The translations under genes and the position numbers were made by a program. 63,698 bases of DNA from Deltaproteobacteria bacterium (GTDB taxonomy: Bacteria > Desulfobacterota > Syntrophobacteria > BM002), in contig CP070689.1 of assembly GCA_020353155.1 (NCBI GenBank), forward strand, positions 1,765,503-1,829,200, written 5' to 3'. The notes under the pieces are model-generated. The model saw only the letters and a program-made list of their open reading frames with translations, was not told where the DNA came from and ran no database searches. Shown piece by piece: positions 7,161 through 63,698 of this stretch (position 1 is its first letter; each line of letters starts with the position of its first letter).

Positions 7161-7282
7161 AGCAGCCAGTAGGCAGTAGTCAGTAGATAGAATGCAGCAG
7201 CATCTCCGGGCGTCTTGGAAACGCTGGTATATTCTGAACTTACCTTCTAACTGCTGAATCCTGACTCCTAACTCCTGGCTCC
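7161..7282. repeat. intergenic word-array inverted repeat (CAGTAG-type words)
   Basis: The left arm GCCAGTAGGCAGTAGTCAGTAG is roughly complementary to the right arm CTGACTCCTAACTCCTGGC. Confidence 0.6.
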
Positions 7283-7294
7283 TTCCCGCCCCTT

Positions 7295-7606
7295 ATGATT
7301 GACAAGACGAAGACAATCAAGACTGTCACAGAAAAGCTTAAGGAACTCCCCCTGGGCCACTATTTGGACTTGCGAACCTATAAGCGGAACCGTTCTGTGA
7401 TTATCGTCAAACAGGGGCACGAGGACCTATTGGTCATAGAGAACGGTCACTATCAGGAGAGATTTTATCTCAAACAGGAAAAGCTCAAGAAGCTGCTGAA
7501 AACCCTTTTGAGAAAAGAGTTCCCTAGGAGCAATAAAATAAGGCTCTATATTATGGGGAACTTCAAGGAGGATGAGGCCCAGAATCTGAAGCGAAAAGTC
7601 CTCTAG
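7295..7606 (+). CDS. hypothetical protein
   Basis: 103-aa basic ORF downstream of the gp32-like gene. No motif recognised. Confidence 0.4.
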   Translation: MIDKTKTIKTVTEKLKELPLGHYLDLRTYKRNRSVIIVKQGHEDLLVIENGHYQERFYLKQEKLKKLLKTLLRKEFPRSNKIRLYIMGNFKEDEAQNLKRKVL

Positions 7607-7707
7607 CCAATCCTAGCGCGACTTTTGCTATTGACAAATAGCTTGTATCTAATTAAGCGATAGATATCAGCGATAAGGACTACCTGAAGCCGCCGGAGAA
7701 AGAGTGC

Positions 7708-8079
7708 ATGGAAAAAAGAAATTTTGACAGAATCCCCTTCCAAACCAAAGCGATAGTGAGGTCCAAGGAGACCACAGTAATTGGCATAGTAGAAAATTTG
7801 AGTTTGGACGGGATATTTTTGAAAACGCCAGAAAAACTAAATCTCAACAGAATCGTCAAGATTGAGTTACTATTTACCGGAACTTCATCTCAACTTTCCA
7901 TTCTTTTGGACGGAAAAATAATGCGCCATGAAAATATAGGAATGGCAATTCAATTCAAAAATGTCGACATGGACGCGTTTTTTCATCTTAAAAATCTCAT
8001 CTCCTACAATACGAATCAGATGGGAAAGTTAAAAAATGACTTTAAGAAATTTATAAAGACGAAAGGCAAAAAAACCTAA
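7708..8079 (+). CDS. PilZ domain protein
   Basis: RNFDR (RxxxR) and NLSLDG ([DN]xSxxG). More divergent than the other four single-domain PilZ genes. Confidence 0.7.
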   Translation: MEKRNFDRIPFQTKAIVRSKETTVIGIVENLSLDGIFLKTPEKLNLNRIVKIELLFTGTSSQLSILLDGKIMRHENIGMAIQFKNVDMDAFFHLKNLISYNTNQMGKLKNDFKKFIKTKGKKT

Positions 8080-8203
8080 TAGTTTATCGTACGGGCAATC
8101 TCCGCCTAATCCTCTATAGGCCAAAGTATTTTCCCCCTATCTGTTCTCTTCCCACTCTTTCTAGGTAATAATATAATCACTCCCTTTTCAATGCGAAGAG
8201 GTT

Positions 8204-8416
8204 TGAAGCTTAGGGCATGGGGCATAGAGCATAGGGAAAGGAGTCAGAATCCAGAATCCAGAATTCAGTAGTAAAGCGATCAAAACCGGGTTCCTCTCAA
8301 CATTTCGTCCCTAATTAACGCCTGATTCTATACAGTGCCTAGTGCTTAGTGCATGGTGCCTAGTGATTTGATACTAGCTAACGCAGGCCTTGTGCCCTGA
8401 GCCTTGAGCCTTCAGC
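8204..8416. repeat. composite word-array element (GGCATAG / CAGAATC / TAGTGCC / CCTTGAG words)
   Basis: GGGCATGGGGCATAGAGCATAGGG-AAAGG-AGTCAGAATCCAGAATCCAGAATTCAG ... GTGCCTAGTGCTTAGTGCATGGTGCCTAGTG ... CCTTGTGCCCTGAGCCTTGAGCC. Confidence 0.65.
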
Positions 8417-8429
8417 ATGGGGCAACCTC

Positions 8430-9059: not shown

Positions 9060-9315
9060 TCAAGACAAGATTATAAAAAACAGTATTTATTAAGTATTTA
9101 TTAAAAAACTTCATGTAAGTTCTAAAATATCTTTACATAATAATTTGTAAAAATCTGTCTCATCTATACTTTCTTGTTGCACCATTCTTCACGCCTTTGA
9201 TATTATATCAACAGTTTATTTCCACATTCTCATCTCAAAGACAATTGCGACGGCGCACGTCCCAGTGGTATTCCTCTCTCCTATCTCCTGACTTCTGTCT
9301 CCTGAACTCTAACCA

Positions 9316-9882: not shown

Positions 9883-9941
9883 CAATAATTCCTTTCCGCC
9901 TTGCTTCTTATAGCAATAGAGGATTTTTTACATATTCAGGC

Positions 9942-9957
9942 AGCAAGTAATATGCCA
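9942..9957 (-). promoter_or_regulatory. sigma-54-type promoter (TGGCATA-N4-TTGCT)
   Basis: Read on the minus strand. Lies 60 nt upstream of ATG 9882. Confidence 0.6.
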
Positions 9958-10067
9958 GCGAGGAAGAGGAAAACAGCAAGATGTAATTTTGATACATCGG
10001 TTCCTATATTCCAGAGCATCGATTACTTGCCCGATTTTTATGAAGACAGAGGCATCAGAGCTAAAAA

Positions 10068-10083
10068 CGGTACGACCCTTGCA
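10068..10083 (+). promoter_or_regulatory. sigma-54-type promoter candidate (CGGTACG-N4-TTGCA)
   Basis: Lies 44 nt upstream of ATG 10127. Divergent from the promoter at 9942..9957. Confidence 0.5.
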
Positions 10084-10126
10084 ATTCATTTAAAATTCGT
10101 CATTCCTTTTTACGAAAGGATCTAAG

Positions 10127-10501: not shown

Positions 10502-10571
10502 CGAGAGCGAATTGCAAAAACTGAGTGATGACTCACATTGGGGTTAAGACCTGCATTTGCAGGAGGCGAAG

Positions 10572-11390
10572 ATGATTAAATCTTGCTTTATCCTTGAAAG
10601 CGGCGGCAATGAAAAGAGAGTTTTTCCCTTTTACCAAAAGCTCACTATCGGCAGACATTCTTCCAACGACGTTATCTTAGCGGACCGCATGGTGTCCAAG
10701 CGGCATGCGGCAGTTGGCCGGGTTAAAGGTCGTATTGTGGTAAAAGACTTGGGAAGTCGTAACGGTACTTTTGTTAACGGAGAGAGGGTTGAAAAAACCA
10801 TACTTGCCAGTGGAGACAGACTCAAAGTGGGTAGCGCGGTGCTAAGGTTTTTTAGGGAAGAAGAGCGTGGCAAGACCGACCTTGATGGGAGTGCCACCAC
10901 TTCTGGAGGAGTGCAGAAGTTAGGTGAATATTTGATAGAGGCAGGGATTGTTGATGAATTCACCTTGCTCAGAGTTTTAGGAGAGGAAGAAAAGAGCCAA
11001 ACAATTGACCAGATGCTCCTTGACACAGGGATTCTAGATGATTTGAACATAGCGAAATCCCTGGCCAAACAGTTAAAGGTTCCCTTCGTTCGCCTTAAAG
11101 AACTTGAAATACCACAAGAGGTCACTTCACTAGTGCCTGTGGGGGTGGCAAAGTCCCATTTGCTCATGCCAGTTAGAGTATCCGATGGCAAGCTTGTGGT
11201 AGCAATGGCTAACCCGCTGGACTCAGATGCCATTCAGGCTATAAGGTTAGTTACAAGGATGAAAATTGAAGTGGCTGTAGCTCCGCGGCAAGATATTCTC
11301 GAGGCCTTTGTAAGGGCTTACCCCGTAGAATTCCTGGATCAAGTCCTTCAGGGAGCTCCAGATGAGGATGAGGTCACCATAGATCTTTAA
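10572..11390 (+). CDS. FHA domain protein with C-terminal T2SSE_N/MshEN-type domain
   Basis: ATG at 10572 follows AGGAGG. FHA motifs: LTIGRHSSNDVILADRMVSKRHA and GSRNGTFVNGE. The C-terminal part (KLGEYLIEAGIVDEFTLLRVLGEE, then LLDTGILDDLNIAKSLAKQL, then PLDSDAIQAIR) matches the GspE/MshE N-terminal domain. Confidence 0.8.
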   Translation: MIKSCFILESGGNEKRVFPFYQKLTIGRHSSNDVILADRMVSKRHAAVGRVKGRIVVKDLGSRNGTFVNGERVEKTILASGDRLKVGSAVLRFFREEERGKTDLDGSATTSGGVQKLGEYLIEAGIVDEFTLLRVLGEEEKSQTIDQMLLDTGILDDLNIAKSLAKQLKVPFVRLKELEIPQEVTSLVPVGVAKSHLLMPVRVSDGKLVVAMANPLDSDAIQAIRLVTRMKIEVAVAPRQDILEAFVRAYPVEFLDQVLQGAPDEDEVTIDL

Positions 11391-11480
11391 CTAGATTGCA
11401 AAACAAGGTGGTTTGCAGCGGACAAATAAGGATTTTTCCGTCTAAACCTTTTGATCATATTGATCATAGAGGAGAAAGAA

Positions 11481-12056: not shown

Positions 12057-12060
12057 AAAG

Positions 12061-12214
12061 AGATTGCGGATTTGGGAAGGCATAGAGCATAGGGCATGGG
12101 CATAGAGTAAAAAGTCAGAAGTCAGAATTTATGATTCATGAGAAAAGCAACGAAGAGAGATTCCCTTTCAACTGCTAGCTACTGACTAATGGCTGCTTGA
12201 ATTGCGGATTGATC
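12061..12214. repeat. composite word-array element with the same module order as 8204 and 53474
   Basis: GGCATAGAGCATAGGGCATGGGCATAGAG-TAAAA-AGTCAGAAGTCAGAAT ... CTGCTAGCTACTGAC. Flanked by AGATTGCGGATTTGGG and GAATTGCGGATTG. Confidence 0.65.
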
Positions 12215-13585: not shown

Positions 13586-13942
13586 CTATTTTGTGGAGTC
13601 GAGCTTTGCTTTATAAAGTTGCTCTACCATATTGCGCAAAACCCGATGCTGAGGGGCGGAAGTTTCGGTGAATCGCACACCCATTCCCGAGGGCATGCTT
13701 TCGGGTTTAGAGCTGTGAGGGTTTGACCAGGCAACCTCTGCTGGGATCTCAAAAGGGCGGTGGTTGGGAGCCATAATGAAAAGTCTGAGCTTTTCTTTAG
13801 GACTCAAGGGCAGGTCACAGCTAATGAACGCCCCTTCATTACTTATGTCCCTAGTCTCCGCCACAACGACCCCCCTGCCGGTTATTATAACGACAGGCCA
13901 TTTCACCCTGACCCTAGTGGGGGTTCTGCGTTCAGTTGCCAT
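13586..13942 (-). CDS. PilZ domain protein
   Basis: RRTPTR and DISNEG motifs, plus GMGVRF. Paralog of 5999, 30899 and 57394. Confidence 0.8.
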   Translation of the reverse strand: MATERRTPTRVRVKWPVVIITGRGVVVAETRDISNEGAFISCDLPLSPKEKLRLFIMAPNHRPFEIPAEVAWSNPHSSKPESMPSGMGVRFTETSAPQHRVLRNMVEQLYKAKLDSTK

Positions 13943-19700: not shown

Positions 19701-19701
<1 letters not shown>

Positions 19702-19815
19702 ATTTCGGATTTGAGTGATCAGGTTTCAGTGTTTATCACTCGCCTTTCTTTTTTCTGACACCTGAAACCCGAAACCTGACACCTGAATGACGCCTGAAAA
19801 CCTGAGATTTGGCGC
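19701..19815. repeat. TTTCAGG-family hairpin element (minus orientation)
   Basis: CAGGTTTCAGTG ... TTCTTTTTTCTGACACCTGAAACCCGAAACCTGACACCTGAA. Confidence 0.65.
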
Positions 19816-23800: not shown

Positions 23801-23811
23801 TAAGGTTCATT

Positions 23812-23877
23812 CTGGAGTGCTGGAGTGTTGGAGTATTGGAGTACTGGTTACTCCATTACTCCATAACTCCATAACTG
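23812..23877. repeat. 8-nt word hairpin (TGGAGTNN x4 / complementary ACTCCATN x4)
   Basis: CTGGAGTGCTGGAGTGTTGGAGTATTGGAGTACTGG is directly abutted by TTACTCCATTACTCCATAACTCCATAACTG. Confidence 0.7.
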
Positions 23878-24211
23878 AAATTCCTACCTAAAAATCCTCA
23901 ACATGCAGTATGAGAAAAATTCCTGCCGAAGTTTAGATTAAGGGATGTAAAATGAAATTTTGCTGTGATTGAGGTGACGTTTACATTTCTCATCACTAAA
24001 TAAACTATTGCATGGGACAACCTGCCTTGCAATCCTTTCACACATCATTAAGTACATTCCTCTTGTAATTCCAAGGTTTCTCTTGTAAGTTTAGCCTAGC
24101 CTTATTCCTAGTAAATTAATAGCTTACATTGCAGGTTCACCAAAGCTGCGGCTAATTGCAACATGAAGCCACCCCATCCACTAAGATGTATTTTCATGGG
24201 AGACTTACAAG

Positions 24212-27962: not shown

Positions 27963-27966
27963 AGAC

Positions 27967-30263: not shown

Positions 30264-30375
30264 AAAATGGAAAGTACGTTTAGGCGGGCAGCGTCTATAG
30301 ACACGGTTTACTAGGCAGTAGGCACTAAGCACTACAAAGCGAAAGGTTAGAGGAAATAACAACGAGATTAGAACC

Positions 30376-30898: not shown

Positions 30899-31237
30899 AT
30901 GGTTCCTGATGAAGATAGACGCACTTATCCAAGAGCCGAAATCAGATGGCCTGTTACCATCGAAAGCGCAAGGGGCACCATAGAGGCTAACTTGAGAAAT
31001 CTCGGGGTCGGTGGTGCCTACATCCACTGCGAGGAGACGGCGGACCCGGGCGAGCGAATCTCCTTAACTATTAGACCTCCAGAGGCTTCAGCCTTTAAAA
31101 TCATCGCTGAAGTGATATGGGCAGGCAAGGTTTTGGCTCTTGGGATGGGAGTCCGTTTCGTTGAGATCTCTGACGAGGATCGACAGTTTATCTCAGATAC
31201 TGTTTCCAAACTTCTCAATGATACAAATCTCCAATGA
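30899..31237 (+). CDS. PilZ domain protein
   Basis: RRTYPR and NLGVGG motifs, plus GMGVRF. Its stop overlaps the ATG of the next gene (ATGA at 31234). Confidence 0.8.
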   Translation: MVPDEDRRTYPRAEIRWPVTIESARGTIEANLRNLGVGGAYIHCEETADPGERISLTIRPPEASAFKIIAEVIWAGKVLALGMGVRFVEISDEDRQFISDTVSKLLNDTNLQ

Positions 31238-31911: not shown

Positions 31912-31992
31912 CAATACTTCAGTATTCGAACGTCCCATTACTCCAATACTCCACGCCTCCAGTACTCCATTCTGCATTCCGAAATCTCCACC
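31912..31992. repeat. word array (TACTCCA-type) plus small palindrome AATACTTCAGTATT
   Basis: CATTACTCCAATACTCCACGCCTCCAGTACTCCATTCTGCATTCCGAAATCTCCACC. Confidence 0.55.
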
Positions 31993-32563: not shown

Positions 32564-33337
32564 ATGTTTAACAAGCGATCACTCTTGATTTTTTGTTCAA
32601 TATCCCTTCTGCTTCCAGCCTGTGTTTCCAAATCGAAGTACTTACAACTTGAATCCGAGCTTGCCCGCACTAATGAGAATCTCAGCCACACTGAGAGTAG
32701 GATTTCCTATACTGAGGAAAGTAGGGAAAAGTGTATGGACAGCCTGGCAGATTTTCAGGGTAGACTTAAAGAAAAGGAAGGTGAAAAGGCTCAACTCTCA
32801 GAAAAGGTTCAAGACTTAAAATATGACATTGAAATGAAAGAATCTACTATTGAAGAGCAAACAAAAGTTATCAGAGGGCTTCATGCAACAAAAGAGAAAA
32901 TAGAGATTAGCCTGCAAGAGCAGATTGAGGCGCAGGAAGTCAAAATTGAGGAGATAGAGGGTAAATTAAAGGTAACTTTTGTGGATAAAATTCTTTTCGA
33001 TACAGGCAAAGTGGAAATTGGTAAAAGAGGTCAAGAGGCACTTCTGAATCTGGCTGACACTTTGAGGGAGAACAAAAATCAGAACATAGTAGTCGAGGGT
33101 CACACGGACGATGTTCCCATAGGGCTGGCCTTAATGGACAAATATCCCACCAATTGGGAACTCTCAGCAGCTAGGGCTTTAGGGGTCGTCCGTTTTCTCC
33201 AAGAGAAAGGCTGGCTGGAGCCAGAAAGACTATCAGCAGTGGCCTTCAGCTATTATAAGCCTGTGGCCTCAATCGACACTGCCAAGGGTAGGCGTCAAAA
33301 TCGGCGCATAGAGATAATCCTAGTACCGAAAAAGTGA
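32564..33337 (+). CDS. OmpA/MotB-domain lipoprotein with coiled-coil N-terminus
   Basis: Lipobox LLLPAC. OmpA domain motifs: VEGHTDDVPIG, NWELSAARALGVVRFL and NRRIEIIL. Confidence 0.85.
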   Translation: MFNKRSLLIFCSISLLLPACVSKSKYLQLESELARTNENLSHTESRISYTEESREKCMDSLADFQGRLKEKEGEKAQLSEKVQDLKYDIEMKESTIEEQTKVIRGLHATKEKIEISLQEQIEAQEVKIEEIEGKLKVTFVDKILFDTGKVEIGKRGQEALLNLADTLRENKNQNIVVEGHTDDVPIGLALMDKYPTNWELSAARALGVVRFLQEKGWLEPERLSAVAFSYYKPVASIDTAKGRRQNRRIEIILVPKK

Positions 33338-36735: not shown

Positions 36736-36877
36736 CAGGTGTCGGGGTTCAGGTGTCAGGTTTCAGGAGAAGAAACAAAAAAGTGAAAGCTGGCACCTCG
36801 AGACTGTAAGATTTAATTCCTTAATCTCACATCTCATATCTCAAATCCGCAATCCCAAATCCGAAATCTTAAATCTG
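36736..36877. repeat. TTTCAGG-family array followed by AATCCGC/AAATC word array
   Basis: CAGGTGTCGGGGTTCAGGTGTCAGGTTTCAGG-AGAAGAAACAAAAAAGTGAAAG ... CAAATCCGCAATCCCAAATCCGAAATCTTAAATCTG. Confidence 0.6.
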
Positions 36878-36881
36878 CTTA

Positions 36882-37409: not shown

Positions 37410-37482
37410 AACTATTGCTCCATCCTGGTAAGTAACAATGGGAGAGTTTACCGGCAGAAGCAGGGCAATGCAAGCCTTCCTT

Positions 37483-37561
37483 GGAGGTTTCAGGTGTCAG
37501 GTGTCAGGAGAAAAAAAGAAGAGTAAAATCTGAAATCTGAACACTGAAACCTTAAACCTGG
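37483..37561. repeat. TTTCAGG-family hairpin element
   Basis: GGTTTCAGGTGTCAGGTGTCAGG-AGAAAAAAAGAAGAGTAAAAT-CTGAAATCTGAACACTGAAACC. Confidence 0.7.
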
Positions 37562-38057: not shown

Positions 38058-39017
38058 CTAGAATTCCCACATTACAGGATTATCGTCCAGATGGTTGGTG
38101 ACACTCCTACCTATGTGGTCTATTTCATCTAAATCGGCAGGAGAGAGTAGGATTCCACCGGCCTTGGCGTTTTGCCTAACTTGCTCTGCATTCCGTGCTC
38201 CGGCTATTGCACAATTTCCGGGCTGGGCAATTATCCAAGCTAGGGCAAGCTGCCCCAGGCTAATGCCGTTGCGTTCGGCAATGGGGCGCAGTCTTCCTAG
38301 TGCCTGCTGAACGCGCTCATAGTTCTCTGGCTTGAACAGTTTGTTTTTTGAGCGATGATCGCCCCTGTCAAATTTGTGATTGGGCCCAAATTTTCCGGTC
38401 AACAGCCCCTGCGCCATGGGAGAATAGGCCAGGATGGTGATGTTGTTTTGTACACAGTAAGGTCGGGCATCCTTTTCTACCTGACGCCAGAAAAGAGAGT
38501 AGGGCGGCTGCAGACTATCAATCCGGCCATACCCGGTTGCTTCTTCCAGTTGCGCCCTGGAGAAATTGGACACACCAATTGCCCTTATTTTACCTTGCGC
38601 CTTAAGGTCATTCAGTGCCCCCATGGTTTCCTCTATAGGTACATGCTCAGTGCCCCAAGAGCCAGCGGGCCAGTGGATCTGGTAGAGATCAATATAGTCT
38701 GTCTTGAGATTCTTGAGGGAGCGGTGGCAGGCTTCCATAACCTGCTCATATTTAAGATGGTTGGAAAAGACCTTGGTCGCGTACACCACCTGTTCTCTAA
38801 CATCAGCAAGGGCTTCACCTATAACGCTCTCTGAATGACCATTGCCATAATACTCGGCGGTATCTATGGTGGTTATCCCGGCCTCAAATGCTGCCCGTAA
38901 GGCCTTAGTCGTTTCAGAGTCATCAATTCCTACCCACATCTCTTTGCCTGCCTGCCAAGTCCCCATAATGATCGGAGAGATCTTTACTTCAGAAGTTCCG
39001 AGAGAGCGAAATTCCAT
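38058..39017 (-). CDS. aldo/keto reductase
   Basis: IDTAEYYG, IDLYQIHWP and GVSNF motifs. RBS GGAGGT. Confidence 0.9.
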   Translation of the reverse strand: MEFRSLGTSEVKISPIIMGTWQAGKEMWVGIDDSETTKALRAAFEAGITTIDTAEYYGNGHSESVIGEALADVREQVVYATKVFSNHLKYEQVMEACHRSLKNLKTDYIDLYQIHWPAGSWGTEHVPIEETMGALNDLKAQGKIRAIGVSNFSRAQLEEATGYGRIDSLQPPYSLFWRQVEKDARPYCVQNNITILAYSPMAQGLLTGKFGPNHKFDRGDHRSKNKLFKPENYERVQQALGRLRPIAERNGISLGQLALAWIIAQPGNCAIAGARNAEQVRQNAKAGGILLSPADLDEIDHIGRSVTNHLDDNPVMWEF

Positions 39018-43570: not shown

Positions 43571-43712
43571 ACCCCTCGTCTAAAAAAGCCGCTTTTACTC
43601 GGTTATATCACCAAGCGGTGTAACGAGACCGTTTCATAAAACATTTAGGCTAATTAAATTTTCCCACCAGACAGCCTTATATGTAAAGTGCTCACAATCG
43701 ACTTTGTGCTTT

Positions 43713-43728
43713 TGCACTTTACGTGCCT
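43713..43728 (-). promoter_or_regulatory. sigma-54-type promoter candidate (AGGCACG-N4-GTGCA)
   Basis: On the minus strand, ~140 nt upstream of ATG 43570. Confidence 0.45.
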
Positions 43729-43748
43729 GACGTAGGTATTTCAAAATG

Positions 43749-43913
43749 AAGATTTTAGCTTGCAGATTTGGAGTTTTAGATTTGAGATTGTAGATTCCAA
43801 TATTCATTTTAGATTTAAGATTTAAGATTACTGATTTAGCAATGAAGCAAATATGAGCAGGCAACTATCAATAGTCATCAATCTACAATCTAGAATCTGA
43901 ATCCACAATCTGA
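43749..43913. repeat. word-array inverted repeat (AGATTTN words)
   Basis: The left arm (CAGATTTGGAGTTTTAGATTTGAGATTGTAGATT...TTTAGATTTAAGATTTAAGATT) is complementary to the right arm (AATCTACAATCTAGAATCTGAATCCACAATCTGA). Confidence 0.65.
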
Positions 43914-43933
43914 GGTGACTATTTGGAGCAGCT

Positions 43934-45506: not shown

Positions 45507-45549
45507 AAAAAAGATCCCCACCCCGGCAAAATTGAAAGCAAGGGTGGGG
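45507..45549 (-). terminator. rho-independent terminator downstream of the ftsB-like gene
   Basis: The minus strand reads CCCCACCC-loop-GGGGTGGGG followed by ATCTTTTTT. Confidence 0.6.
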
Positions 45550-45660
45550 CGTGGAAGGAGGTTTTTGGCTTTGGCATAGGGTCCACATAATCAAACCCTA
45601 TCCGATTAGTAGTTTAACCTGAAAATCTGTAAAGGGAAATAGGGGAGGGGAAAAACAGCT

Positions 45661-45972: not shown

Positions 45973-46489
45973 GACCGGGCCTATTGAATGAGGCCTTGTG
46001 TGTCAAATTGTGAGCAGAATGAGCTTCCTTCTCTCAATGGAAATCTTCCTACTTTGCCAGTCTAACTTGTCTAATTCTTTATCACAAATTGAACATGGTT
46101 GTAAATGGCTAATTTGAAACATAAAAACTCATCAGGCCTACCTTGTATTGACTGGATCACTCATTGGCATCCCTTTTAGAAGAAGAATGTGTTCTTTTGC
46201 CCCGGGGCCTGTTAAAATACTGACCTTGACCGCTTTTCCTAAAAGAAGGCAAAGGGTTAAAGATCTTCGCACAGGACAACAATGTCTATTTTATTATTAG
46301 AGGACTCGATGAACCGCTGAACATGTCACGGGTCGCAGATTAACACTGACCTGGCCAAAATGCTTCTCCCCCTTGACATTGTGCTTACCCTTTTTGTGCT
46401 GGTGTGTGTTTTTCCCCTAGGCCATGAAGGGTGTTTCAACGGATGAAAGAGAGCAGAGGAGATGGGGAAACTATCGTTGGAGAAAAGCC

Positions 46490-46517
46490 TTGACAAAAGG
46501 GGGTGAGGGGATAGAAT
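46490..46517 (+). promoter_or_regulatory. sigma-70-like promoter candidate (TTGACA-N16-TAGAAT)
   Basis: Lies 70 nt upstream of the carboxyltransferase ATG at 46588. Confidence 0.45.
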
Positions 46518-46587
46518 GACTGGATTTTCAGGGGAATTTCTTATGTATCTCTCTAGATAAAACCTGGAGAAAGCAGGAGCTAAATAG

Positions 46588-48161: not shown

Positions 48162-48199
48162 AAAAAAGCCCCTACCTGAATCAGTTTAGGGGCTTTTTT
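48162..48199 (+). terminator. rho-independent terminator after the carboxyltransferase gene
   Basis: AAAAAAGCCCCTA-loop-TAGGGGCTTTTTT. Confidence 0.75.
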
Positions 48200-48201: not shown

Positions 48202-48383
48202 GACTAAACACTAGGCACTAAACACTAGGCACTAAAGAATACATAATATTAAATATAAATATTTTAAATTATTAATTAAAAAATAAATTATTTAAGAAAA
48301 AACTTTAAATATAAAATATTCAATTTTGGCCTTGGGACAAATCTCTTATAGTAGTGCTTAGTGCTTACTGCCTAGTGCCTAGT
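48202..48383. repeat. TAGGCAC-word inverted repeat enclosing a 92-nt loop of about 96% A+T
   Basis: Arms: GACTAAACACTAGGCACTAAACACTAGGCACTAAAG and TAGTAGTGCTTAGTGCTTACTGCCTAGTGCCTAGT. The core (48237..48328) has only ~4 G/C. Confidence 0.75.
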
Positions 48384-48850: not shown

Positions 48851-48912
48851 CGCACAGCGAAAGGCGCAAAGCGCATAGCGTTTACTCTTTCTTTCACTAT
48901 GCTCTATGCCCC
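48851..48912. repeat. GCATAGC-word array inside the mutase operon (between meaB and the epimerase gene)
   Basis: CGCACAGCGAAAGGCGCAAAGCGCATAGCG ... CACTATGCTCTATGCCCC. Confidence 0.6.
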
Positions 48913-50296: not shown

Positions 50297-50310
50297 CCTT
50301 AACCTCCTAC

Positions 50311-50404
50311 TTAGCGCATAGCGGTAAGCGCATAGCGCATGGCGAAAAAAATCTTTCTCAGTCCACAGTTTTTACGCTCTGCCCTTGGCGCTATGCGCTC
50401 TGCG
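50311..50404. repeat. GCATAGC-word hairpin inside the mutase operon (between the large and B12-binding subunit genes)
   Basis: TTAGCGCATAGCGGTAAGCGCATAGCGCAT versus CGCTCTGCCCTTGGCGCTATGCGCTCTGCG. About 80% complementary, with a ~30-nt loop. Confidence 0.7.
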
Positions 50405-50405
50405 A

Positions 50406-52142: not shown

Positions 52143-52195
52143 CGTCAGTATCAGTTCAACAACATATAACGCAGAATCCAGTATCCAGTATCGAG
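52143..52195. repeat. word array (CAGTATC/CAGAATC)
   Basis: CGTCAGTATCAGTTCAAC ... CAGAATCCAGTATCCAGTATCGAG. Confidence 0.5.
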
Positions 52196-52196
52196 A

Positions 52197-53252
52197 TTAA
52201 ACTTTAAAGCGAAAAAAGATAACATCACCGTCCTGGACGATATAGTCTTTTCCTTCCAAGCGCACAAGTCCCTGCTTTTGCGCTCCAGCATAGTTGCCGG
52301 CCTTAAATAGGTCATCATAGGCGACCACCTCGGCTCGAATGAAACCGCGCTCCATGTCTGTATGCACAGTGCCAGCTGCTCTTAAGGCAGGGCTACCCTC
52401 TTTTATGGTCCAGGCCCGTGCTTCCTGTTCATTTGCGGTGAAGAAGGTAATCAGGCCGAGAAGTCTGGAGGATGCCTGAATGACCTGCTCCCTGGCGAGC
52501 GTTTCGAGTCCAAGCTCCTCCATAAATTCACCGGCCTCTTCAGGAGAGAGTTGCGCCAGTTCCATCTCCAGTTTGCCTAATATTTCCAGGTAGGGACCCA
52601 TGGTGCCATCAGTGATCTCTTTTGGAAGGGATTGCGCATCTTCCTCCGGTTGATTAACCAGTATCAGCATGGGTTTGGCTGAGAGGAAACTAAACCCCCG
52701 CATAGTGGCCACATCTAGTATGTCCGCCAGGGGACGAAGAGCATTGCTGGACTCGAGGGTTTCCAAGCATTGTTCCAACAGGCGCACTTCTTCCGTACTT
52801 TCCTTCTTACCCTTCTTTCTTTCAGTAGCAATGCGTTCAAGTCGTTTCTCCACAACCAGCAGGTCGGCCAGAATTAGGTCCGTTTCTACCCGCGATATGT
52901 CACCCAGAGGATCTGGAGCACCGTGCAAAGGGTGCTTGAAGTTGCGGACAACATGCACCAGTGCATCCACCGGTCTTATGTGATTAAGAAAAGCCTCTCC
53001 CAATTCCTCACCTCTTAGCGGGGCGCCGGTCAAACCACCCACGTCCACATAGTCCACCGTAGCTTCCGTGACTTTCTTCGGATTGTAAAGCTTTGCAAGA
53101 AATGGTAGTCGAGGCTCCGGCACCTTTACCACCGCCAGATTGGGGCCCCGATCAACCGAGGAAAAATCTGAAACCTGCGCAGAACTACTGGTGAGAGCAT
53201 TAAAAACTGTAGTCTTCCCGCAGCCTGGAAGTCCGATAATGCCCAGTCGCAT
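52197..53252 (-). CDS. ychF: YchF/OLA1-family redox-regulated ATPase
   Basis: N-terminal G1 motif GIIGLPGCGKTT. The C-terminal pattern (RAWTIKEGSPALRAAGTVHTDMERGFIRAEVV ... GKDYIVQDGDVIFFRF) is typical of YchF. Confidence 0.85.
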   Translation of the reverse strand: MRLGIIGLPGCGKTTVFNALTSSSAQVSDFSSVDRGPNLAVVKVPEPRLPFLAKLYNPKKVTEATVDYVDVGGLTGAPLRGEELGEAFLNHIRPVDALVHVVRNFKHPLHGAPDPLGDISRVETDLILADLLVVEKRLERIATERKKGKKESTEEVRLLEQCLETLESSNALRPLADILDVATMRGFSFLSAKPMLILVNQPEEDAQSLPKEITDGTMGPYLEILGKLEMELAQLSPEEAGEFMEELGLETLAREQVIQASSRLLGLITFFTANEQEARAWTIKEGSPALRAAGTVHTDMERGFIRAEVVAYDDLFKAGNYAGAQKQGLVRLEGKDYIVQDGDVIFFRFKV

Positions 53253-53473
53253 AGCCTGATCCTTTAAACATCGATTGATGTACTATTTCGAAATCAAAAA
53301 TGGGGATTGCAGATTTGGGTCACATATCATTAAAAAGCAGATTGTAGAAATTTTCATTAGAAATTTCCGGAGCGGGAGCCCGCATGACGAGCACCGAAAA
53401 CCTTTACTGACCCTCTTCTTTTGTGCTAAGGACTTTACAACAGTGGTGCATGGGTGTCAATGAAATCACGGTA

Positions 53474-53636
53474 CAGGCATAGGGCATGGAGCATAGAGCA
53501 TAGAGTAAGAATTCAGAATTCAGAACCCGGAATCCACAATTTAGGAGAGAAACAATCAAAGCAGAGTTTGTAAACTACTGGCTACTGACTACTGGCTACT
53601 AGACTTTTGCCTTTGGCCTTGAGCCCTAAGCCTTCA
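53474..53636. repeat. composite word-array element (GGCATAG / TTCAGAA ... CTACTGG / CCTTGAG)
   Basis: CAGGCATAGGGCATGGAGCATAGAGCATAGAG-TAAG-AATTCAGAATTCAGAAC ... ACTACTGGCTACTGACTACTGGCTACTAG ... GCCTTTGGCCTTGAGCCCTAAGCC. Confidence 0.7.
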
Positions 53637-53710
53637 ACGTTCTACGGTATGCCCATCTTTTAGCAATGGACAACTGATCCGCTTCAGACGGAGCAACGGA
53701 GCTAAATGAA

Positions 53711-54070: not shown

Positions 54071-54134
54071 TGGTTTCAGTGTTCAGTTGTCAGGCTTTAC
54101 CCTCTATTTTGCTCTTTTCTGAAACCTGAAACCC
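54071..54134. repeat. TTTCAGG-family hairpin element (minus orientation)
   Basis: TGGTTTCAGTGTTCAGTTGTCAGG-CTTTACCCTCTATTTTGCTCTTTT-CTGAAACCTGAAACCC. Confidence 0.7.
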
Positions 54135-54151
54135 AAACTAAGATTCTCCTA

Positions 54152-54913: not shown

Positions 54914-54968
54914 AGTACCTCCTCACCATTTGTCTTTGCTAGCCATAGGGCGAAATACCAAATCAAAG

Positions 54969-55100
54969 AATCCAGTAGCCAGTAGCATATACTTGAGAGG
55001 GAATCACTCTGGGTTGTCTTTCTCCTGAATTCTGACTTCTGACCCCATGCCCTATGCACTCACAAATCCGCAATCCCCATTCCGCAATCCGAAATCTCCC
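54969..55100. repeat. composite word arrays (CCAGTAG; reverse TCAGAAT and GGCATAG words; AATCCGC words)
   Basis: GAATCCAGTAGCCAGTAGC ... CTCCTGAATTCTGACTTCTGACCCCATGCCCTATGCAC ... CAAATCCGCAATCCCCATTCCGCAATCCGAAATCTCCC. Confidence 0.6.
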
Positions 55101-55104
55101 ATAC

Positions 55105-55593
55105 CTACTCGACCACAACGACGGCACACCCTCGTGCCTCCCTGACCACTTTTGTAGAGACGCTCCCAGAGAAAACCTCGCGGACACGGGAGACTCCGCG
55201 TCTTCCCAAAATCAGAGTGTCGTAATTGCCAAGTTCAGCTTCCTCAAGAATTCCGTCGGCAATCTCTGCCTTTTTTACCCCGAACTTGGACTTGATCTGA
55301 TTAGGTTGAACACCCGCCTTAACAAGCAGATCTTTGGCTTCGCCAAAGAACTTATTCATCTCCTCCTCATCCTCCGCTCGCCAATAGAGACCAGCCAAGT
55401 CGGGACGCTCCGCCTTGCGGGAATCAATTGTTTTAATTTCCTCTTTGTCGAGATTCATACGGGAAATTGCCGGGAGAATCTGAAAGAGCACCAGTCGAGC
55501 TTCTGGATTTGGTGCGAATACTCTCCCCGCGTATTCAACCGCTCGCCGTGAATTTCGACTGCCATCTACGGCAATTAGTACGCTATGAAGCAT
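55105..55593 (-). CDS. universal stress protein (UspA family)
   Basis: VLIAVDGSRNSRRAVEYA ... LILGRRGVSRVREVFSGSVSTKVV. Confidence 0.85.
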   Translation of the reverse strand: MLHSVLIAVDGSRNSRRAVEYAGRVFAPNPEARLVLFQILPAISRMNLDKEEIKTIDSRKAERPDLAGLYWRAEDEEEMNKFFGEAKDLLVKAGVQPNQIKSKFGVKKAEIADGILEEAELGNYDTLILGRRGVSRVREVFSGSVSTKVVREARGCAVVVVE

Positions 55594-56510: not shown

Positions 56511-56527
56511 ATCACCCCATATGTCAA

Positions 56528-56617
56528 CTAGGCACTAAGAACTAGGCACTAAGCACTACAACCCTCTTGCATTTGGCGCCTAGTGCTTACTGCCTAGTGC
56601 GGAGACACAGTCTCCGC
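56528..56617. repeat. TAGGCAC-word hairpin plus 7-bp hairpin GCGGAGA-CACAG-TCTCCGC
   Basis: CTAGGCACTAAGAACTAGGCACTAAGCACTAC versus GCGCCTAGTGCTTACTGCCTAGTGC (16/18 complementary in the core). Confidence 0.7.
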
Positions 56618-57028
56618 TCATATCTCCTTAAAAACCTTGGCCAGTGACTCGCCTGCCACATGGAGTTTCCATTCGTTGAGGTAGCCAAAGGGTGTTACCG
56701 TAACGGAGTATCCTGCTCTCTCCAGGCGAGCGCGAGCCTCCTGAACCAATTCCTCAGCAAAGTCAGCAGGGGCTTTGCTGTTTGAAAGATGATTGAAAGA
56801 ATGTAAGACTACATTTTTAGAGTCAAATTTTCCAGCGAGCCATTTGATGTTTTTAACAAACTTGGTTGTTACCTTTCCCCGCCTGTCAAAATCTTCTGCC
56901 TCAATGTGGTAGAAGACTACCACAGCTTCTTCACAGTTGGCCTCCAACTCCTGGTCCTCCACTTGTTCAAGCACCTTTTGATAGGTTTTGAACCAGAAAG
57001 AGGGAGCGTAGAAAAGAAGAAGTTTCAT
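56618..57028 (-). CDS. free-standing archaeal-type threonyl-tRNA synthetase editing domain (DTD2-like) homolog
   Basis: 136 aa. MKLLLFYA..., VVVFYHIE, NVVLHSFNHLSNSKAPADFA and GYSVTVTPFGYLNEWKLHVAGESLAKVF parallel the archaeal ThrRS N-terminal editing domain (LLIHAD..., [32 protein letters not shown]), as recalled. Confidence 0.55.
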   Translation of the reverse strand: MKLLLFYAPSFWFKTYQKVLEQVEDQELEANCEEAVVVFYHIEAEDFDRRGKVTTKFVKNIKWLAGKFDSKNVVLHSFNHLSNSKAPADFAEELVQEARARLERAGYSVTVTPFGYLNEWKLHVAGESLAKVFKEI

Positions 57029-57098: not shown

Positions 57099-57214
57099 GG
57101 AGATTTCGGATTGAGTATTGCGGATTTCAGTATGTAGGTTTCAGCTTTCAGGTGTCAGAGAAAATCAAATAACGGGTAAAATCTGAAAGCTGAAATTTAA
57201 AGCCCCAGATTCGG
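57099..57214. repeat. AATCCGC-word (reverse) array plus TTTCAGG-family hairpin, copy upstream of PilZ 57394
   Basis: GGAGATTTCGGATTGAGTATTGCGGATTTC ... GGTTTCAGCTTTCAGGTGTCAG-AGAAAATCAAATAACGGGTAAAAT-CTGAAAGCTGAAA. Confidence 0.7.
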
Positions 57215-57393: not shown

Positions 57394-57771
57394 ATGTCTA
57401 ACCATGAAGAAAGACGGAATTACCCCAGGGCTAAGATCAAGTTGCCGGTTGTAAAGATGGCTGGAGACGACCTTGTAAACGCCGAAATTCAAGATCTTAG
57501 TCTCGGAGGCGCATTCATTCGCTGCCCAGTAATGGTGAGGACCAAAGACAAGTTCCATATGGTTATAAGCGCCAAGGGAAGGCTGGTGTCAATCATTGGC
57601 GAGGTGGTGTGGCAAGACCTCAACAAGATCAATCACAAGGCCAAGATGCACGGAATGGGAGTGCAGTTTAAACAAATATTTAGTGGAGACCGTCGGTTTC
57701 TTCGGGAGGCGATCGCCAATTACCACCGTAACAGGCTTTGGCTTCCAAGAATACTTAGATCCAACCGTTAA
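57394..57771 (+). CDS. PilZ domain protein
   Basis: RRNYPR and DLSLGG motifs, plus GMGVQF. Paralog of 5999, 13586 and 30899. Confidence 0.8.
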   Translation: MSNHEERRNYPRAKIKLPVVKMAGDDLVNAEIQDLSLGGAFIRCPVMVRTKDKFHMVISAKGRLVSIIGEVVWQDLNKINHKAKMHGMGVQFKQIFSGDRRFLREAIANYHRNRLWLPRILRSNR

Positions 57772-57826: not shown

Positions 57827-57921
57827 GCTAGGTTAGGTTTCAGGTTTCAGGTGTCAGTAAAAAGACAAATACGGGTAAGAGCTGAAAGCTGAAACCTAAG
57901 GCCCTGAAATCCGACACCTGG
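57827..57921. repeat. TTTCAGG-family hairpin, copy downstream of PilZ 57394 (direct repeat of 57135..57200)
   Basis: GGTTTCAGGTTTCAGGTGTCAG-TAAAAAGACAAATACGGGTAAGAG-CTGAAAGCTGAAACC. Confidence 0.7.
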
Positions 57922-60586: not shown

Positions 60587-60631
60587 GGCAGGCCACAGTG
60601 GATGTAAATTTTACAGGATAGCAAGGGGAGA

Positions 60632-63085
60632 TTACTTGATCTTGGCGCGGTAAAGTCGCAAGCTGTTTGAGACAACGGTTATACTGCTCAGTGCCATAGC
60701 CAGGGCTGCCAGGATGGGATGCAGCTGTCTGAGAATGGAAGGTAAGAATTGTAAGGGATAAAGCAGGCCTGCAGCGACTGGGATGAGAACTATATTGTAA
60801 ATAAAGGCCCAGAAGAGGTTTTGTTTCACCGTTCTCATGGTGGCTCGACTCAACTGGATGGCCCGGGACACTCCCAAGAGGTTCCCACTGGCCAAGATGA
60901 CGTCAGCTGTCTCCATTGCCACATCTGTTCCGGTACCAATGGCAATACCCACATCCGCTTGGGCTAGGGCAGGGGCGTCATTGATGCCGTCGCCTACCAT
61001 GCCAACCAGGTGACCCTCCCCTTGGAGTTCCTTCACCTTCATAGATTTCTCTCCAGGGCGGACCTCAGCGACAATATCATCCACCTGTACCTGTTCTCCA
61101 ATGGTTCTGGCCGTCTGAATATTGTCACCAGTGAGCATGACCACTTTTAGACCTTGACCATGAAGCTCAGCCACGGCCTTCTTTGACTCAGGTTTCAAGG
61201 AATCGGCAACCGCAATAAAGCCTGCCAGCTCCTTTTCCACCACAACGGCCATCAAGGTTTTCCCTTGACTCTGAAGGGTTTGAATGTCTTTATTCCCAGC
61301 CACCATATCCACACCCATCTCGATGAACCAGCCCGGCTTGCCCACGTAGACCAACTTCCCATTTATCCTGGCTTGAACCCCGAGTCCACCGGATGCCTTA
61401 AAGTCCTCAGGCTCGAACAGCTCCAAACCTTGCCTTTCCGCCTCCTTGATTATTGCCCGACCCACAGGGTGTTCAGAACCCTTCTCTACTGAAGCGGCAA
61501 TTCGCAGAAGTTCTTCTTTATCCTGAACTGGCGACGAAGTGTTGAAAGCGATGACATCAGCCACTGTCGGCTTGCCAAGGGTAAGAGTTCCAGTCTTGTC
61601 GAGAACAATAGTTTTTAGCTTAGTGGCTTTTTCAAGGGCTTCACTGTCTTTGAACAAGACACCTTTCTCTGCACCTTTGCCGGTCCCAGCCATGATGGCA
61701 GTAGGAGTGGCCAGACCAAGAGCACAGGGACAGGCAATTATGAGAACCGCCACCAACCTGATCATGGCAGGTACGAACTCACCACCAAGACTCCACCAAA
61801 GAACAAAGGTGATCGTGGCAATTCCAATAACACCTGGAACGAAAACAGCTGCCACCCGATCGGCAAGTGCCTGGATGGGGGCTTTGCTCCCCTGAGCTTC
61901 CTGAACTAGCTTAATAATCTGGGCCAGAGCGGTATCCTTTCCTACCTTGGTTGCCCGAAACTTGAGAAAACCTTCTGAATTAATGGTGGCGCCCACAACT
62001 GTGTCTCCGCTGCTCTTGTCCACGGGAATCGGTTCACCCGTTAACATGGACTCGTCAACAGCGGAGTTCCCCTCCAGGACCACACCGTCAACTGGAATCT
62101 TTTCACCGGGACGGACGGCTAACACATCACCGACCTTCACCTCTTTGAGGGAGACCTCCACTTCCTTGCCGTCCCTTATGATAGTCGCGGTTTTTGGGCG
62201 CAAACCGATGAGCTTGCGGATAGCATCTCCCGTCCTCCCCTTGGCTCGTGCCTCCAGCATCTTTCCAAGTTTGATCAAGGTGATGATCACTGCTGAAGTT
62301 TCGAAATAAACGTGGCTACCGAGGGCAGGGTAGAGGAGAACTGTAAGGGAATAGAAGTAAGCAACTGAAGAGCCCATAGCCACCAACACGTCCATGTTGG
62401 CGCTGCGGTTCTTCAGGCTCTTCCAACCACCAGTATAATAGTCCCAACCGGTGTAGAATTGGACGGGTGTTGCCAGGGCCCAGAAAACCCAGTTGACCCA
62501 GAGAGCATGACTCCACCCACCCAAGAGGCCGAAGTCCCGTGCCATGCTCCAGAGGAATAGAGGCAGGGTGAAGAGAAGACCGACGATGAACTTTCTTGTT
62601 TGCTCGGCAATTTCGGCCCGTCGCGCCCTCAGTTCAACGTCCTCATCTTCTCCGGCCTCATCTGGAAGAATGGCGTCAAATCCTGCCATTCTTATGGCCG
62701 CAATTATCTCCTCAACACTTGTCAGATTAGGTAGGTATTCAACAGTTGCTCTCTCGCTAGCAAAATTAACAGAAGCCTGAACCACCCCCGGAACCTTTTT
62801 GTTTAAGGTCCTCTCTATATTCATGGCGCAATTGGCGCAGGTCATTCCAGTTATTGGAAGTTCAATCTTAGCAGTGGCAATCCCGTAACCGGCGTCTTTA
62901 ATCTTTTTTATTAGATCATCTACCTCGATTTGTTCAGGATCAAATGAAACTGATGCCTGCTCTGAGGCGAAATTGACACTTGTATCCTCCACACCCTGAA
63001 GCTTTTTAAGATTCCTTTCAATGTTCAGGGCACAATTGGCACAGGTCATTCCGGTTATGGGTAATGTTACATTCTCACTAGCCAT
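60632..63085 (-). CDS. copA: copper-translocating P1B-type ATPase
   Basis: Two N-terminal HMA domains (GMTCANCA, twice), then TGEP, CPC, DKTGTLT and GDGINDAP. The start may be 63085 (MASENV), or 63109 or 63136; no clear RBS. Confidence 0.95.
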
Positions 63086-63089
63086 TGTA

Positions 63090-63291
63090 GCTCGCTTCGC
63101 TCGCCGCATAACGCTTTGCGCTATGCGACTAGGCACTAGGGACTAGGAAGTGGGCACTACTATTGAGTCCTAGAGCAAAAGTTATTTCGACAATCCACCG
63201 ACAACCCTCCGCTGCGAGTAGCCACATACTAGAACTATAGAAAATTTTCGGACCAAATTTGGAGCCTAGTGCTTAGTGCATAGTGCCTAGT
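63090..63291. repeat. GCATAGC and TAGGCAC word arrays with an inverted partner, between copA and copZ
   Basis: GCGCTATGCGACTAGGCACTAGGGACTAGGAAGTGGGCACTAC ... GCCTAGTGCTTAGTGCATAGTGCCTAGT. Confidence 0.6.
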
Positions 63292-63324
63292 CAATCCCGT
63301 TATTTACTCCCTGGTGCTGGCCAT

Positions 63325-63531
63325 TTACTCTGAGGCAGGGTAGTTGATCTCCGTGAGCACCTCTTTAATTCTCTTGAGCGTAGCCGGCGCATCCCACTCT
63401 AAAGTTATGCTTTTGCCAGCGGGATCTCCTTCGACTTTACTAACACCTGCAACCTCTCCAAGCTCTTTCTTGATGGTCATCACACAGTGACCGCAGGAGA
63501 TGTTCGGTATGGATAATGTCTTTGTTTCCAT
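63325..63531 (-). CDS. copZ: heavy-metal-associated (CopZ-like) copper chaperone
   Basis: 68 aa with a SCGHC metal-binding loop and a ferredoxin-like HMA layout. Confidence 0.8.
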   Translation of the reverse strand: METKTLSIPNISCGHCVMTIKKELGEVAGVSKVEGDPAGKSITLEWDAPATLKRIKEVLTEINYPASE

Positions 63532-63540
63532 GTTAAATCC

Positions 63541-63698
63541 TTTTAAAACGCATAGCGCTAAGCGCAGAGCGCATAGCGCCAGTTGGTCAAATCGTTAAAT
63601 CCGTTGAAATCGTTCAAGTCGAAATCCGCAATTATGTCCTCTGCAAGCTGCCTTCTGTCCCCCAGCTTCTGACCTCTGACTTCTCAATCTGGAGCGAC
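63541..63698. repeat. consecutive word arrays (GCATAGC; AAATCGTT; AATCCGC; reverse TCAGAAG) running to the window edge
   Basis: ACGCATAGCGCTAAGCGCAGAGCGCATAGCGCC ... CAAATCGTTAAATCCGTTGAAATCGTTCAAGTCGAAATCCGC ... CTTCTGACCTCTGACTTCTC. Confidence 0.6.

Follow-up and report, generated by a model that had tools for sequence, protein, structure and literature searches.

Results

Gene content and host of the locus

The stretch of DNA analyzed here (63,698 nucleotides, positions 1,765,503 to 1,829,200 of contig CP070689.1 in assembly GCA_020353155.1; henceforth the window) belongs to the genome of a sediment bacterium labelled Deltaproteobacteria bacterium and carries, in many of its intergenic gaps, short tandem arrays of slightly varied 7-nt words. 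These heptamer arrays, the cassettes they form and the way in which they change are the subject of this report. A greedy open reading frame (ORF) model assigns 79% of the window to coding sequence. An operon for methylmalonyl-CoA mutase, the B12 subunit, MeaB and the epimerase is accompanied by genes for a carboxyltransferase and an aldehyde:ferredoxin oxidoreductase, the remainder being housekeeping genes. This content fits a syntrophic propionate-type metabolism. No transposase, integrase, reverse transcriptase or cas gene is encoded in the 64-kb window.

The nearest relatives of YchF (77-93% amino acid identity) are found in metagenome-assembled genomes (MAGs) labelled Deltaproteobacteria, Desulfobacterota, Syntrophobacterales or Syntrophobacteria; beyond these, the best match drops to 51%. 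Together with the finding that HIP1 is not enriched in the window, these relatives rule out a cyanobacterial origin, which the look of the words had suggested. Sequences were compared with seven relatives from the clade (L001-L007, about 95 kb in total) and with a set of 73 loci from other phyla (1.06 Mb).

Detection and location of heptamer arrays

Arrays were identified with Tandem Repeats Finder (TRF) and with a lag-autocorrelation scan over periods 3-15, in which strict regions required at least 17 matches in a 21-nt window and second-order Markov simulations served as null model. With TRF, some 50 arrays had a period of 7 nt or a multiple of it (14 or 21), spanning 7167-63614; a few further arrays had period 8, and periods 9, 11, 12 and 19 were represented by one array each. 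The strict scan yielded 14 regions of period 7, two of period 8 and six of period 14, zero for all other periods between 3 and 15, and zero strict regions in the simulations. Period 7 is the sole strongly over-represented tandem period in the window. By the same strict definition, the clade relatives contain 35 period-7 regions, as against 8 in the much larger set from other phyla; the heptamer arrays are a trait of the clade.

An initial annotation, made from the sequence letters, had described tandem, slightly varied 7- or 8-mers in more than 20 intergenic gaps, listed their word families and noticed none in coding sequence. All of this is borne out. TRF and the lag scan place arrays in about 24 of 62 gaps, every listed family is found in the window, and the relaxed scan for period 7 returns 24 regions (0.0 in the simulations), all 24 intergenic and none in coding sequence. 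Of three relaxed matches beyond the called gaps, two coincide in part with questionable ORF calls (55054-55551 and a GTG start at 63136), and the other is a weak run rich in A (32890-32910). The annotated order of a GGCATAG array, a linker and a TCAGAAT array does recur, at 8211, 12080 and 53480; positions 8211-8256 and 53480-53525 are 87% identical over 46 nt, and 12080-12127 has the same array order.

Arrays are present in 14 of 32 co-directional, 6 of 11 convergent and 3 of 12 divergent gaps. They often abut or even overlap the upstream stop codon, the distance to the stop being at most 9 nt in 7 of 24 cases. On the other side, the closest approach to a start codon in the window is at least 10 nt, so that the ribosome-binding site is left free. 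Spacers inside operons are occupied as well, namely those between mutase and B12 subunit, meaB and epimerase, and copZ and copA. Words with CAG and AGG are enriched in the clade and in a viral set described below, and words with TCA also in the latter (z about 2-4.6). The idea that the words supply stop codons in all frames was considered and found not convincing, as 28 of 42 words contain a stop on at least one strand where about 23 are expected. The individual loci are listed in Table 1.

Table 1. Array loci of the window, in window coordinates; z is the folding score of the whole gap relative to shuffled sequences.
Position	Arrays and layout	Context
7161..7284	CAGTAGG array (7161-7190), imperfect inverted pair with ACTCCTG-type array (7252-7284)	flanked by two + strand genes; begins 6 nt past stop codon, ends 10 nt before start codon
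8204..8419	composite cassette: GGCATAG, TCAGAAT, TAGTGCC (8332-8361) and GCCTTGA (8387-8419) arrays	
9272..9297	CTCCTNT-type array, convergent gap	
12061..12132	composite: CGGATTT word, GGCATAG array, A-rich linker, GTCAGAA array	20 nt past stop codon
19702..19790	AGGTKTC-family hairpin, reverse orientation, convergent gap	directly after stop at 19701
23809..23880	8-mer hairpin, CTGGAGTR x5 against ACTCCATA x3-4	8 nt after stop of OmpA-family gene
30310..30335	ACTAGGC array, unpaired	
31935..31969	8-mer array CCAATACT	
36736..36877	CAGGTGT array from stop codon, A-rich spacer, AATCTCA/AATCCGC array	
37481..37559	AGGTKTC-family hairpin, A-rich loop	
39143..39196	ATCTAGC/ATCCAGC array, divergent gap	ends 12 nt before start codon
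43750..43911	long AGATTTN / AATCTNN hairpin	whole gap 43571-43933, z = -4.6
48203..48383	ACTAGGC hairpin, 32-nt arms, 117-nt AT-rich loop	whole gap, z = -7.5
48851..48910	GCGCAAA array and partial CTATGC words	between meaB and epimerase gene
50313..50404	GCGCATA hairpin, spacer of methylmalonyl-CoA mutase and B12-binding subunit	from 1 nt after stop to just before ribosome-binding site
52168..52198	CAGTATC array overlapping ychF stop codon	
53476..53625	composite cassette, divergent gap: GGCATAG, TCAGAAT, CTACTGG and GCCTTGA arrays	
54071..54140	AGGTTTC-type hairpin, convergent gap	
54966..55096	CAGTAGC, CTGAMTT and AATCCGC arrays	between stop of Usp gene and ribosome-binding site of next gene
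56527..56598	ACTAGGC hairpin	whole gap, z = -7.1
57135..57195	AGGTKTC-family hairpin	first of two direct copies flanking PilZ gene
57831..57900	AGGTKTC-family hairpin	second copy flanking PilZ gene
63127..63292	ACTAGGC hairpin	between copZ (63325-63531, - strand) and P-type ATPase gene
63545..63621	GCGCAGA array, then period-9 array AAATCGTT	

The first part of the window (1-7160) is devoid of heptamer arrays across nine gaps of 24-213 nt, and from 7161 on about every second gap has one. Given the few gaps involved, the array-free first 7 kb may be due to chance.

Changes between near-identical strains

Exact-protein look-up in metagenomes of other samples recovered 31 contigs that share 98.5-100% identity with the window and jointly cover about 45 kb of it; look-ups with three window proteins gave no exact match. 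Five distinct indels between these strains fall in arrays, four of them exactly 7 nt long and three of these present in at least two contigs: loss of CAGAATC at 8245, and gain of CTGTCTC at 9295 (three contigs), AGAATTC at 53508 and GCCTTGC at 53623. The fifth is a 2-nt deletion at 8215. The indel rate per aligned kb is 3.7 within arrays, compared with 0.22 elsewhere between genes and 0.08 in coding sequence. That 7-nt indels occur in several independent contigs speaks against an assembly artefact. Slippage had been suggested by the initial annotation as one way of generating the words, and strains at least 98.5% identical that differ by exactly one 7-nt unit at four array sites bear it out.

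In one contig (L213), a new 7-nt tandem duplication of TTGCCCT at 38571-38577 lies within the aldo/keto reductase gene (38058-39017, - strand) and splits it into two called ORFs, while contig L215 spans the same site without the duplication. This may be the birth of a heptamer repeat, in a harmful place.

Larger rearrangements were also found. In L191 the 117-nt AT-rich loop of the 48203-48383 hairpin is inverted, the alignment score being 30 in inverted and 1 in collinear orientation; 61 nt of the inverted loop match at 84%, and the whole gap is highly diverged between flanks that are 99.2-99.7% identical. Five independent contigs (L194-L198) end exactly at the arms of this hairpin, at 48217 and 48355, from which it follows that the inverted repeat breaks assemblies. 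Genomes of the clade are likely fragmented at such hairpin sites, and a practical consequence is that short-read assemblies break at array hairpins.

Whole cassettes differ as well. L199 carries a 159-nt composite cassette instead of the 82-nt hairpin at 54071-54151, with breakpoints at the two stop codons and undiverged flanks; this cassette has a counterpart in L001 beyond moaE, on the other side of that gene (84% over 148 nt). Likewise, L212 carries a GCATAGR hairpin where the window has the left portion of 36736-36881. On the left the break coincides with the stop codon (ACC TGA to ACT TAG) and on the right it falls within a shared array; the new cassette is 90% identical over 40 nt to window positions 12061-12100, including the CGGATTT/GGCATAG junction. 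Intergenic cassettes are the main structural difference found between strains approximately 99.5% identical.

Differences between species and copies at unrelated sites

From 42.6 to 63 kb the window is syntenic with L001-L004 at 74-88% nucleotide identity. Orthologous gaps mostly still bear arrays, often of a different word family. In the gap at 56511-56617, where the window has an ACTAGGC hairpin, L001 shows GCGAGAC arrays, L002 a chain of five families, and L003 an AGGTTTC hairpin with a CTATGCT array. At 50297-50405, either of two hairpins is found, with a distribution that does not follow relatedness: the GCGCATA hairpin (50313-50404) is kept in L004, L006 and L007, and a CAGCWGG-type hairpin stands instead in L002, L003 and L005. 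The hairpin at 43750..43911 is absent or different in L002 and L004, and at 48851..48910 the window has 3 units of GCGCAGA where L002 has 6. The gap at 54914-55104 measures 191 nt with four arrays in the window; L001 and L002 have just one AGGTTTC hairpin there, and in L003 the gap is no longer than 15 nt. Comparison of the filled (L001, L002) and empty (L003) sites places the insert exactly between stop codon and ribosome-binding site, and there is no target-site duplication. Relative to the window and L002, the loop of 57831-57900 runs the opposite way in L001 and L003, between collinear flanks.

Similar elements were recovered at sites that are not orthologous. Window positions 36828-36868 have a 90% identical counterpart in a gap of L004 that is not orthologous (L004:20114-20154), and 63583-63621 are 95% identical to L001:9447-9485, again at a non-orthologous site. 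The 8-mer family of 23809..23880 is found in another gap in L003 and L006. An AGGTKTC hairpin is present at four aligned window loci and as a partial copy at 54100-54150, and also in L001, L003 and L006; a search with the hairpin pattern gave 8 overlapping matches at three window loci and 0 in shuffled sequences. The ACTAGGC hairpin occurs at three window loci (48203, 56527 and 63127).

A comparison of orthologous gaps, as proposed in the initial annotation, reveals change of unit number, turnover of word families and an empty site. Its suggestion that the words simply diversified in place is not supported, as the degenerate order of units, and even non-repetitive loops, are met again at sites unrelated to each other and in further genomes. 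Because of this recurrence, we conclude that arrays are copied as units, in addition to being made in place. As to the template-driven generation that it had also considered, nothing in the data points to templated synthesis.

In the gap at 45973-46587, L002 and L003 have an additional ORF of about 200 codons with a signal-peptide-like start. About 100 nt of the window (46258-46358) match the 3' end of this ORF at 89%; the gene seems to have been lost or deleted.

Inverted pairing, folding and terminators

About half of the loci consist of inverted pairs with repeat-built arms, the array pairs being 48203/48352, 63127/63264, 43768/43880, 56527/56573, 50313/50375 and 57833/57882. The loci 23809-23880, 37481-37559, 19702-19790 and 57136-57194 also folded as hairpins. 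On the other hand, folding of the composite loci 8080-8429, 12057-12213 and 53253-53710 does not exceed that of shuffled sequences (z above +1) and many arrays are unpaired, so that the initial description, by which an array usually has a partner that makes it a stem-loop, applies to only about half of the loci. Several gaps reach z-scores as low as -7.5, but gaps with and without arrays are not significantly separated (mean -1.5 versus -0.6, P = 0.23). The predicted RNA fold is stabler on the sense strand in just 7 of 11 co-directional gaps, which does not indicate whether the structure acts at the RNA or the DNA level. In the 50313-50404 hairpin, compensatory changes affect two pairs, with only four sequences compared. 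Scans against Rfam and for tRNA gave no match.

Contrary to the initial annotation, which had seen no terminal repeats around a gene, the PilZ gene at 57394-57771 has direct hairpin copies on either side (57135-57195 and 57834-57894). These are 87% identical over 62 nt, including the non-repetitive loop.

Terminator-like sites are as frequent in the window as chance predicts, and in the scan (loops of 3-8 nt) no array hairpin matched one on its sense strand. The array hairpins have no T-run. Classical terminators with G+C-rich stems and T-runs lie at 48162-48199 (bidirectional) and at about 45525-45565 (- strand), downstream of a DivIC-family gene; both are conserved in relatives and distinct from the array hairpins, the first adjoining the 48203..48383 hairpin. 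The organism thus has ordinary intrinsic terminators, and the notion that the arrays are drifted versions of such terminators, although many do lie after stops or between convergent genes, is hardly credible given these separate classical examples, the chance frequency of terminator-like sites, the missing T-runs and the arrays inside operons.

Occurrence beyond the clade

Exact scans of IMG/VR found AGGTTTCAGGTGTCAG at 39 loci and CTAGGCACTARGCAC at 43 loci, many of the matches lying inside heptamer arrays. Two composition-matched control words gave 3 and 25 matches, almost none of them in arrays. Strict regions number 2.8 per 10 kb in the 39 AGGTTTCAGGTGTCAG loci, close to the 2.2 of the window and compared with 0.08 in the loci from other phyla. 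The array-rich contigs with AGGTTTC have 52-70% GC. Some array-rich contigs encode phage proteins, a gpA-type terminase and a lambda-type portal, which have only distant relatives among known phages (23-29% identity). Nine phage-like contigs contain the full hairpin pattern (AGGTKTCAG, 8-38 nt, CTGAMAYCTGA), which is absent from all 73 loci of other phyla. Additionally, CCTGANN arrays, for example CTGATACCTGAAACCTGAAGCCTGAG, were found near ychF in five Rubrobacteraceae MAG loci that had not been chosen by word (L026, L029, L031, L032 and L037; 62-65% GC); their word core is common with that of the commonest family of the window, in a different phylum. No match to the two elements searched was found in a plasmid database.

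In one viral contig (L081, IMGVR_UViG_3300018080_001996), a 69-nt array block of CAGAGGT/CAGGTGT units at 3473-3541 lies in frame in the ORF of a gpA-type large terminase, in the linker between the ATPase and nuclease domains. The neighboring primase-like ORF (28-1251) contains three further arrays.

Comparison with known repeat systems

Heptanucleotides are the most abundant long simple-sequence repeats (LSSRs) in most genomes and polymerase slippage has been proposed as their origin, according to the summaries of Mrázek (2007) in PMC4679880 and PMC4692102. A survey of 7,006 prokaryotic genomes with SPADE likewise found tandem heptamers to be the most abundant intergenic repeat, with 'no clear clue' to function (Mori et al. 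2018, 10.1101/309039). Named examples include the cyanobacterial STRR, the GGGAATC repeats of Xanthomonas and the GGGGAYT repeats of Nostoc (Rehm et al. 2015, PMC4692102), and the TAACTGA direct repeats of marine Beggiatoaceae, cyanobacteria and Bacteroidetes (MacGregor 2015, PMC4679880).

The arrays of the window belong to this published class of intergenic tandem heptamers. As in the LSSR class of 5-11 nt, tandem 7-nt units are in excess, intergenic, variable in length between relatives and patchy in phylogeny. The differences are that the arrays of the window are short (2.5-5 units), degenerate, chained in cassettes and often arranged as inverted pairs; that strain-level slippage, loop inversion and cassette swaps are documented here; and that the host clade (Deltaproteobacteria/Desulfobacterota/Syntrophobacteria) is not mentioned in the heptamer papers cited, for Mrázek (2007) in its published summaries. 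A match to an already described repeat family had been named beforehand as an outcome that would speak against a new kind of element. The class is indeed described, which weakens any claim of novelty, although none of the named heptamers is present here, and a literature search for the array sequences found no paper containing them.

Similarity to STRR lies in the dispersal of several tandem heptanucleotide families in non-coding DNA. The units CCCCAGT, TTGGTCA and CAACAGT were reportedly described for STRR by Mazel et al. in 1990. None of them forms a tandem dimer in the window or in L001-L007, and the host is not a cyanobacterium. The GGGAATC and GGGGAYT repeats resemble the window arrays in being intergenic, partly in inverted pairs, and variable in length and sequence at the same gene pairs between close species; neither is found in tandem in the clade, the words of the window are not G-quadruplex formers, and GGGGATT-type arrays do occur in some high-GC phage-like contigs. 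With the TAACTGA repeats, the arrays have in common a heptamer found in distant phyla with no evident transfer mechanism. The TAACTGA case, however, involves only one word, which faces forward and immediately precedes start codons, in contrast to the many words of the window, which stand mostly beside stops; no tandem TAACTGA was found in the clade sequences.

Flip-flop inversion of a hairpin loop between short inverted repeats has been described for chloroplast non-coding DNA. Here too the loop occurs in both orientations with collinear arms and flanks, in this case in a bacterial chromosome and with arms built of heptamer arrays.

Three further categories were rejected. A miniature inverted-repeat transposable element (MITE) is excluded by the absence of a target-site duplication between the filled site of L001 and L002 and the empty site of L003. 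The units are 7-8 nt long and arranged head-to-tail, and no cas domains are encoded in the window, which excludes a CRISPR array and agrees with the initial annotation. Integron attC sites do not apply, as the genes are of the housekeeping type, on both strands and syntenic in relatives, with no integrase in the window.

Discussion

Probable slippage and recombination of modular cassettes

We consider it probable that the arrays are degenerate heptanucleotide microsatellites in modular cassettes of 25-160 nt, which undergo slippage and recombination between arrays and are largely neutral or selfish. Near-identical strains show arrays gaining and losing whole units, which is slipped-strand mispairing with a register of 7 nt, and the TRF periods of 14 and 21 are in keeping with slippage by two or three units at a time. 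Inverted arms interact at the DNA level, because the intervening sequence is found flipped between close relatives; the inverted pairs can fold as hairpins or cruciforms. Whole cassettes are replaced or copied between intergenic sites, and this copying may proceed by ectopic recombination, gene conversion or template switching seeded by shared arrays, with no need of a transposase. Arrays would survive only where frameshifting 7-nt units are harmless, that is past or overlapping stop codons and at least 10 nt from starts. Underlying the whole may be a lineage-specific bias to 7-nt duplication, the arrays being for the most part neutral or selfish by-products, with the possible side effect that variable hairpins are placed in 3' untranslated regions and operon spacers.

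Several observations sit uneasily with such a scheme. Slippage alone leaves unexplained why CAGGTKT and CTAGGCA words and the hairpin layout are shared with contigs of 52-70% GC, with Rubrobacteraceae and with phage-like contigs, and it does not account for the enrichment of TCA, CAG and AGG in the words. The same gaps stay occupied by arrays despite a change of word family, which could reflect selection for a hairpin and not neutrality. The mode of copying is deduced from its products, and an enzyme acting in trans, with its gene outside the window, may be involved. Moreover, the strain contigs are metagenome assemblies, so that some of the structural differences could be assembly choices.

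Alternative explanations

Among the other explanations, the one with the best prospects, to which we assign a real but distinctly smaller chance, is that the elements are REP- or REPIN-like non-autonomous mobile hairpins, moved by a RAYT, an IS200/IS605-type or another enzyme encoded elsewhere, the 7-nt period being secondary. REP, BIME and REPIN elements (PMC3116915, PMC3733652) are likewise dispersed families of intergenic imperfect palindromes, which occur behind genes and within operons, turn over rapidly and do not duplicate their target site. The dispersed hairpin families with arms and loops conserved at unrelated sites, the clean filled and empty sites, the whole-cassette swaps with sharp breakpoints between strains, the positions after stop codons and within operons, and the same hairpin layout in distant taxa and phage-like contigs would all be accommodated. 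What distinguishes the arrays of the window is that the arms are themselves 7-nt tandem arrays and that about half of the arrays either have no inverted partner or show no folding beyond that of shuffled sequences. Neither a RAYT nor any other transposase is encoded in the 64 kb, and no consistent GTAG or CGTC head of the palindromes was seen, the hairpins having been inspected by eye only. Many word families are mixed modularly, which is unexpected for a sequence-specific enzyme, and breakpoints inside shared arrays, as in L212, are what recombination predicts.

Somewhat less probable, in our view, are functional RNA hairpins that protect upstream mRNA from 3' exonucleases, confer differential stability within operons or insulate translation, their sequence being free to vary. 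Such a role would be in line with the occupied operon spacers (mutase, B12 subunit, meaB and epimerase; copZ and copA), with arrays that start at or just past stop codons and spare the ribosome-binding site, with the occupation of the same gaps across relatives while the word family changes, and with the retention of the 50313-50404 hairpin in the more distant relatives L004, L006 and L007. It is harder to reconcile with a sense-strand advantage in only 7 of 11 co-directional gaps, with composite loci that fold like shuffles, with an orthologous gap that can be empty (L003), and with arrays in divergent promoter gaps and in phage genomes; little covariation can be counted in four sequences, and no Rfam family matches.

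We see a similarly slim chance that the arrays are the footprint of a conserved, horizontally spreading 7-nt-specific process, be it a polymerase, a primase, a recombinase or a hairpin-recognizing mobile system, which would use the same vocabulary (CAGGTKT, CTAGGCA and a TCAGG-like core) and hairpin layout in distant phyla and their phages and would insert at, or supply, the upstream stop codon.

The initial annotation had also raised a shared binding factor. Arrays read in a 7-nt register by a protein or ribonucleoprotein, such as a nucleoid-associated or RNA-binding protein, would be consistent with the strict 7-nt register and with the TCAGG-like core enriched in the clade and in unrelated contigs, and reading of this kind was proposed by MacGregor for the TAACTGA repeats (PMC4679880). 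With more than 40 distinct canonical words in the clade, many of which have no common core, a single such factor is unlikely, and unrelated words freely replace arrays at one and the same site. No candidate protein was found either, and we regard this explanation as very improbable.

The window and its strain- and species-level relatives constitute an unusually good natural experiment on the question of heptamer function, as a new 7-nt duplication, gain and loss of single units, loop inversion and exchange of whole cassettes are all found within one lineage. What this case adds is a record of how arrays change, along with a hint of a vocabulary common to phyla and phages. If confirmed on whole genomes, the sharing of words and layout across phyla would bear on whether the prime-number period is a general property of replication or the mark of a transmissible process.

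Additional features of the window

Six PilZ-domain proteins are encoded within the 64 kb (5999-6424, 7708-8079, 13586-13942, 30899-31237, 34433-35335 and 57394-57771). Five are small single-domain proteins and one also has an FHA domain, a striking density of receptors related to cyclic di-GMP. A second FHA protein, with an MshEN domain, is encoded at 10557-11390. Finally, the gene at 56618-57028 (- strand) encodes a free-standing protein of 136 amino acids that matches the editing domain of threonyl-tRNA synthetase PF08915 (E = 2e-42), a domain that is archaea-specific according to Pfam and is found here in a bacterial genome.

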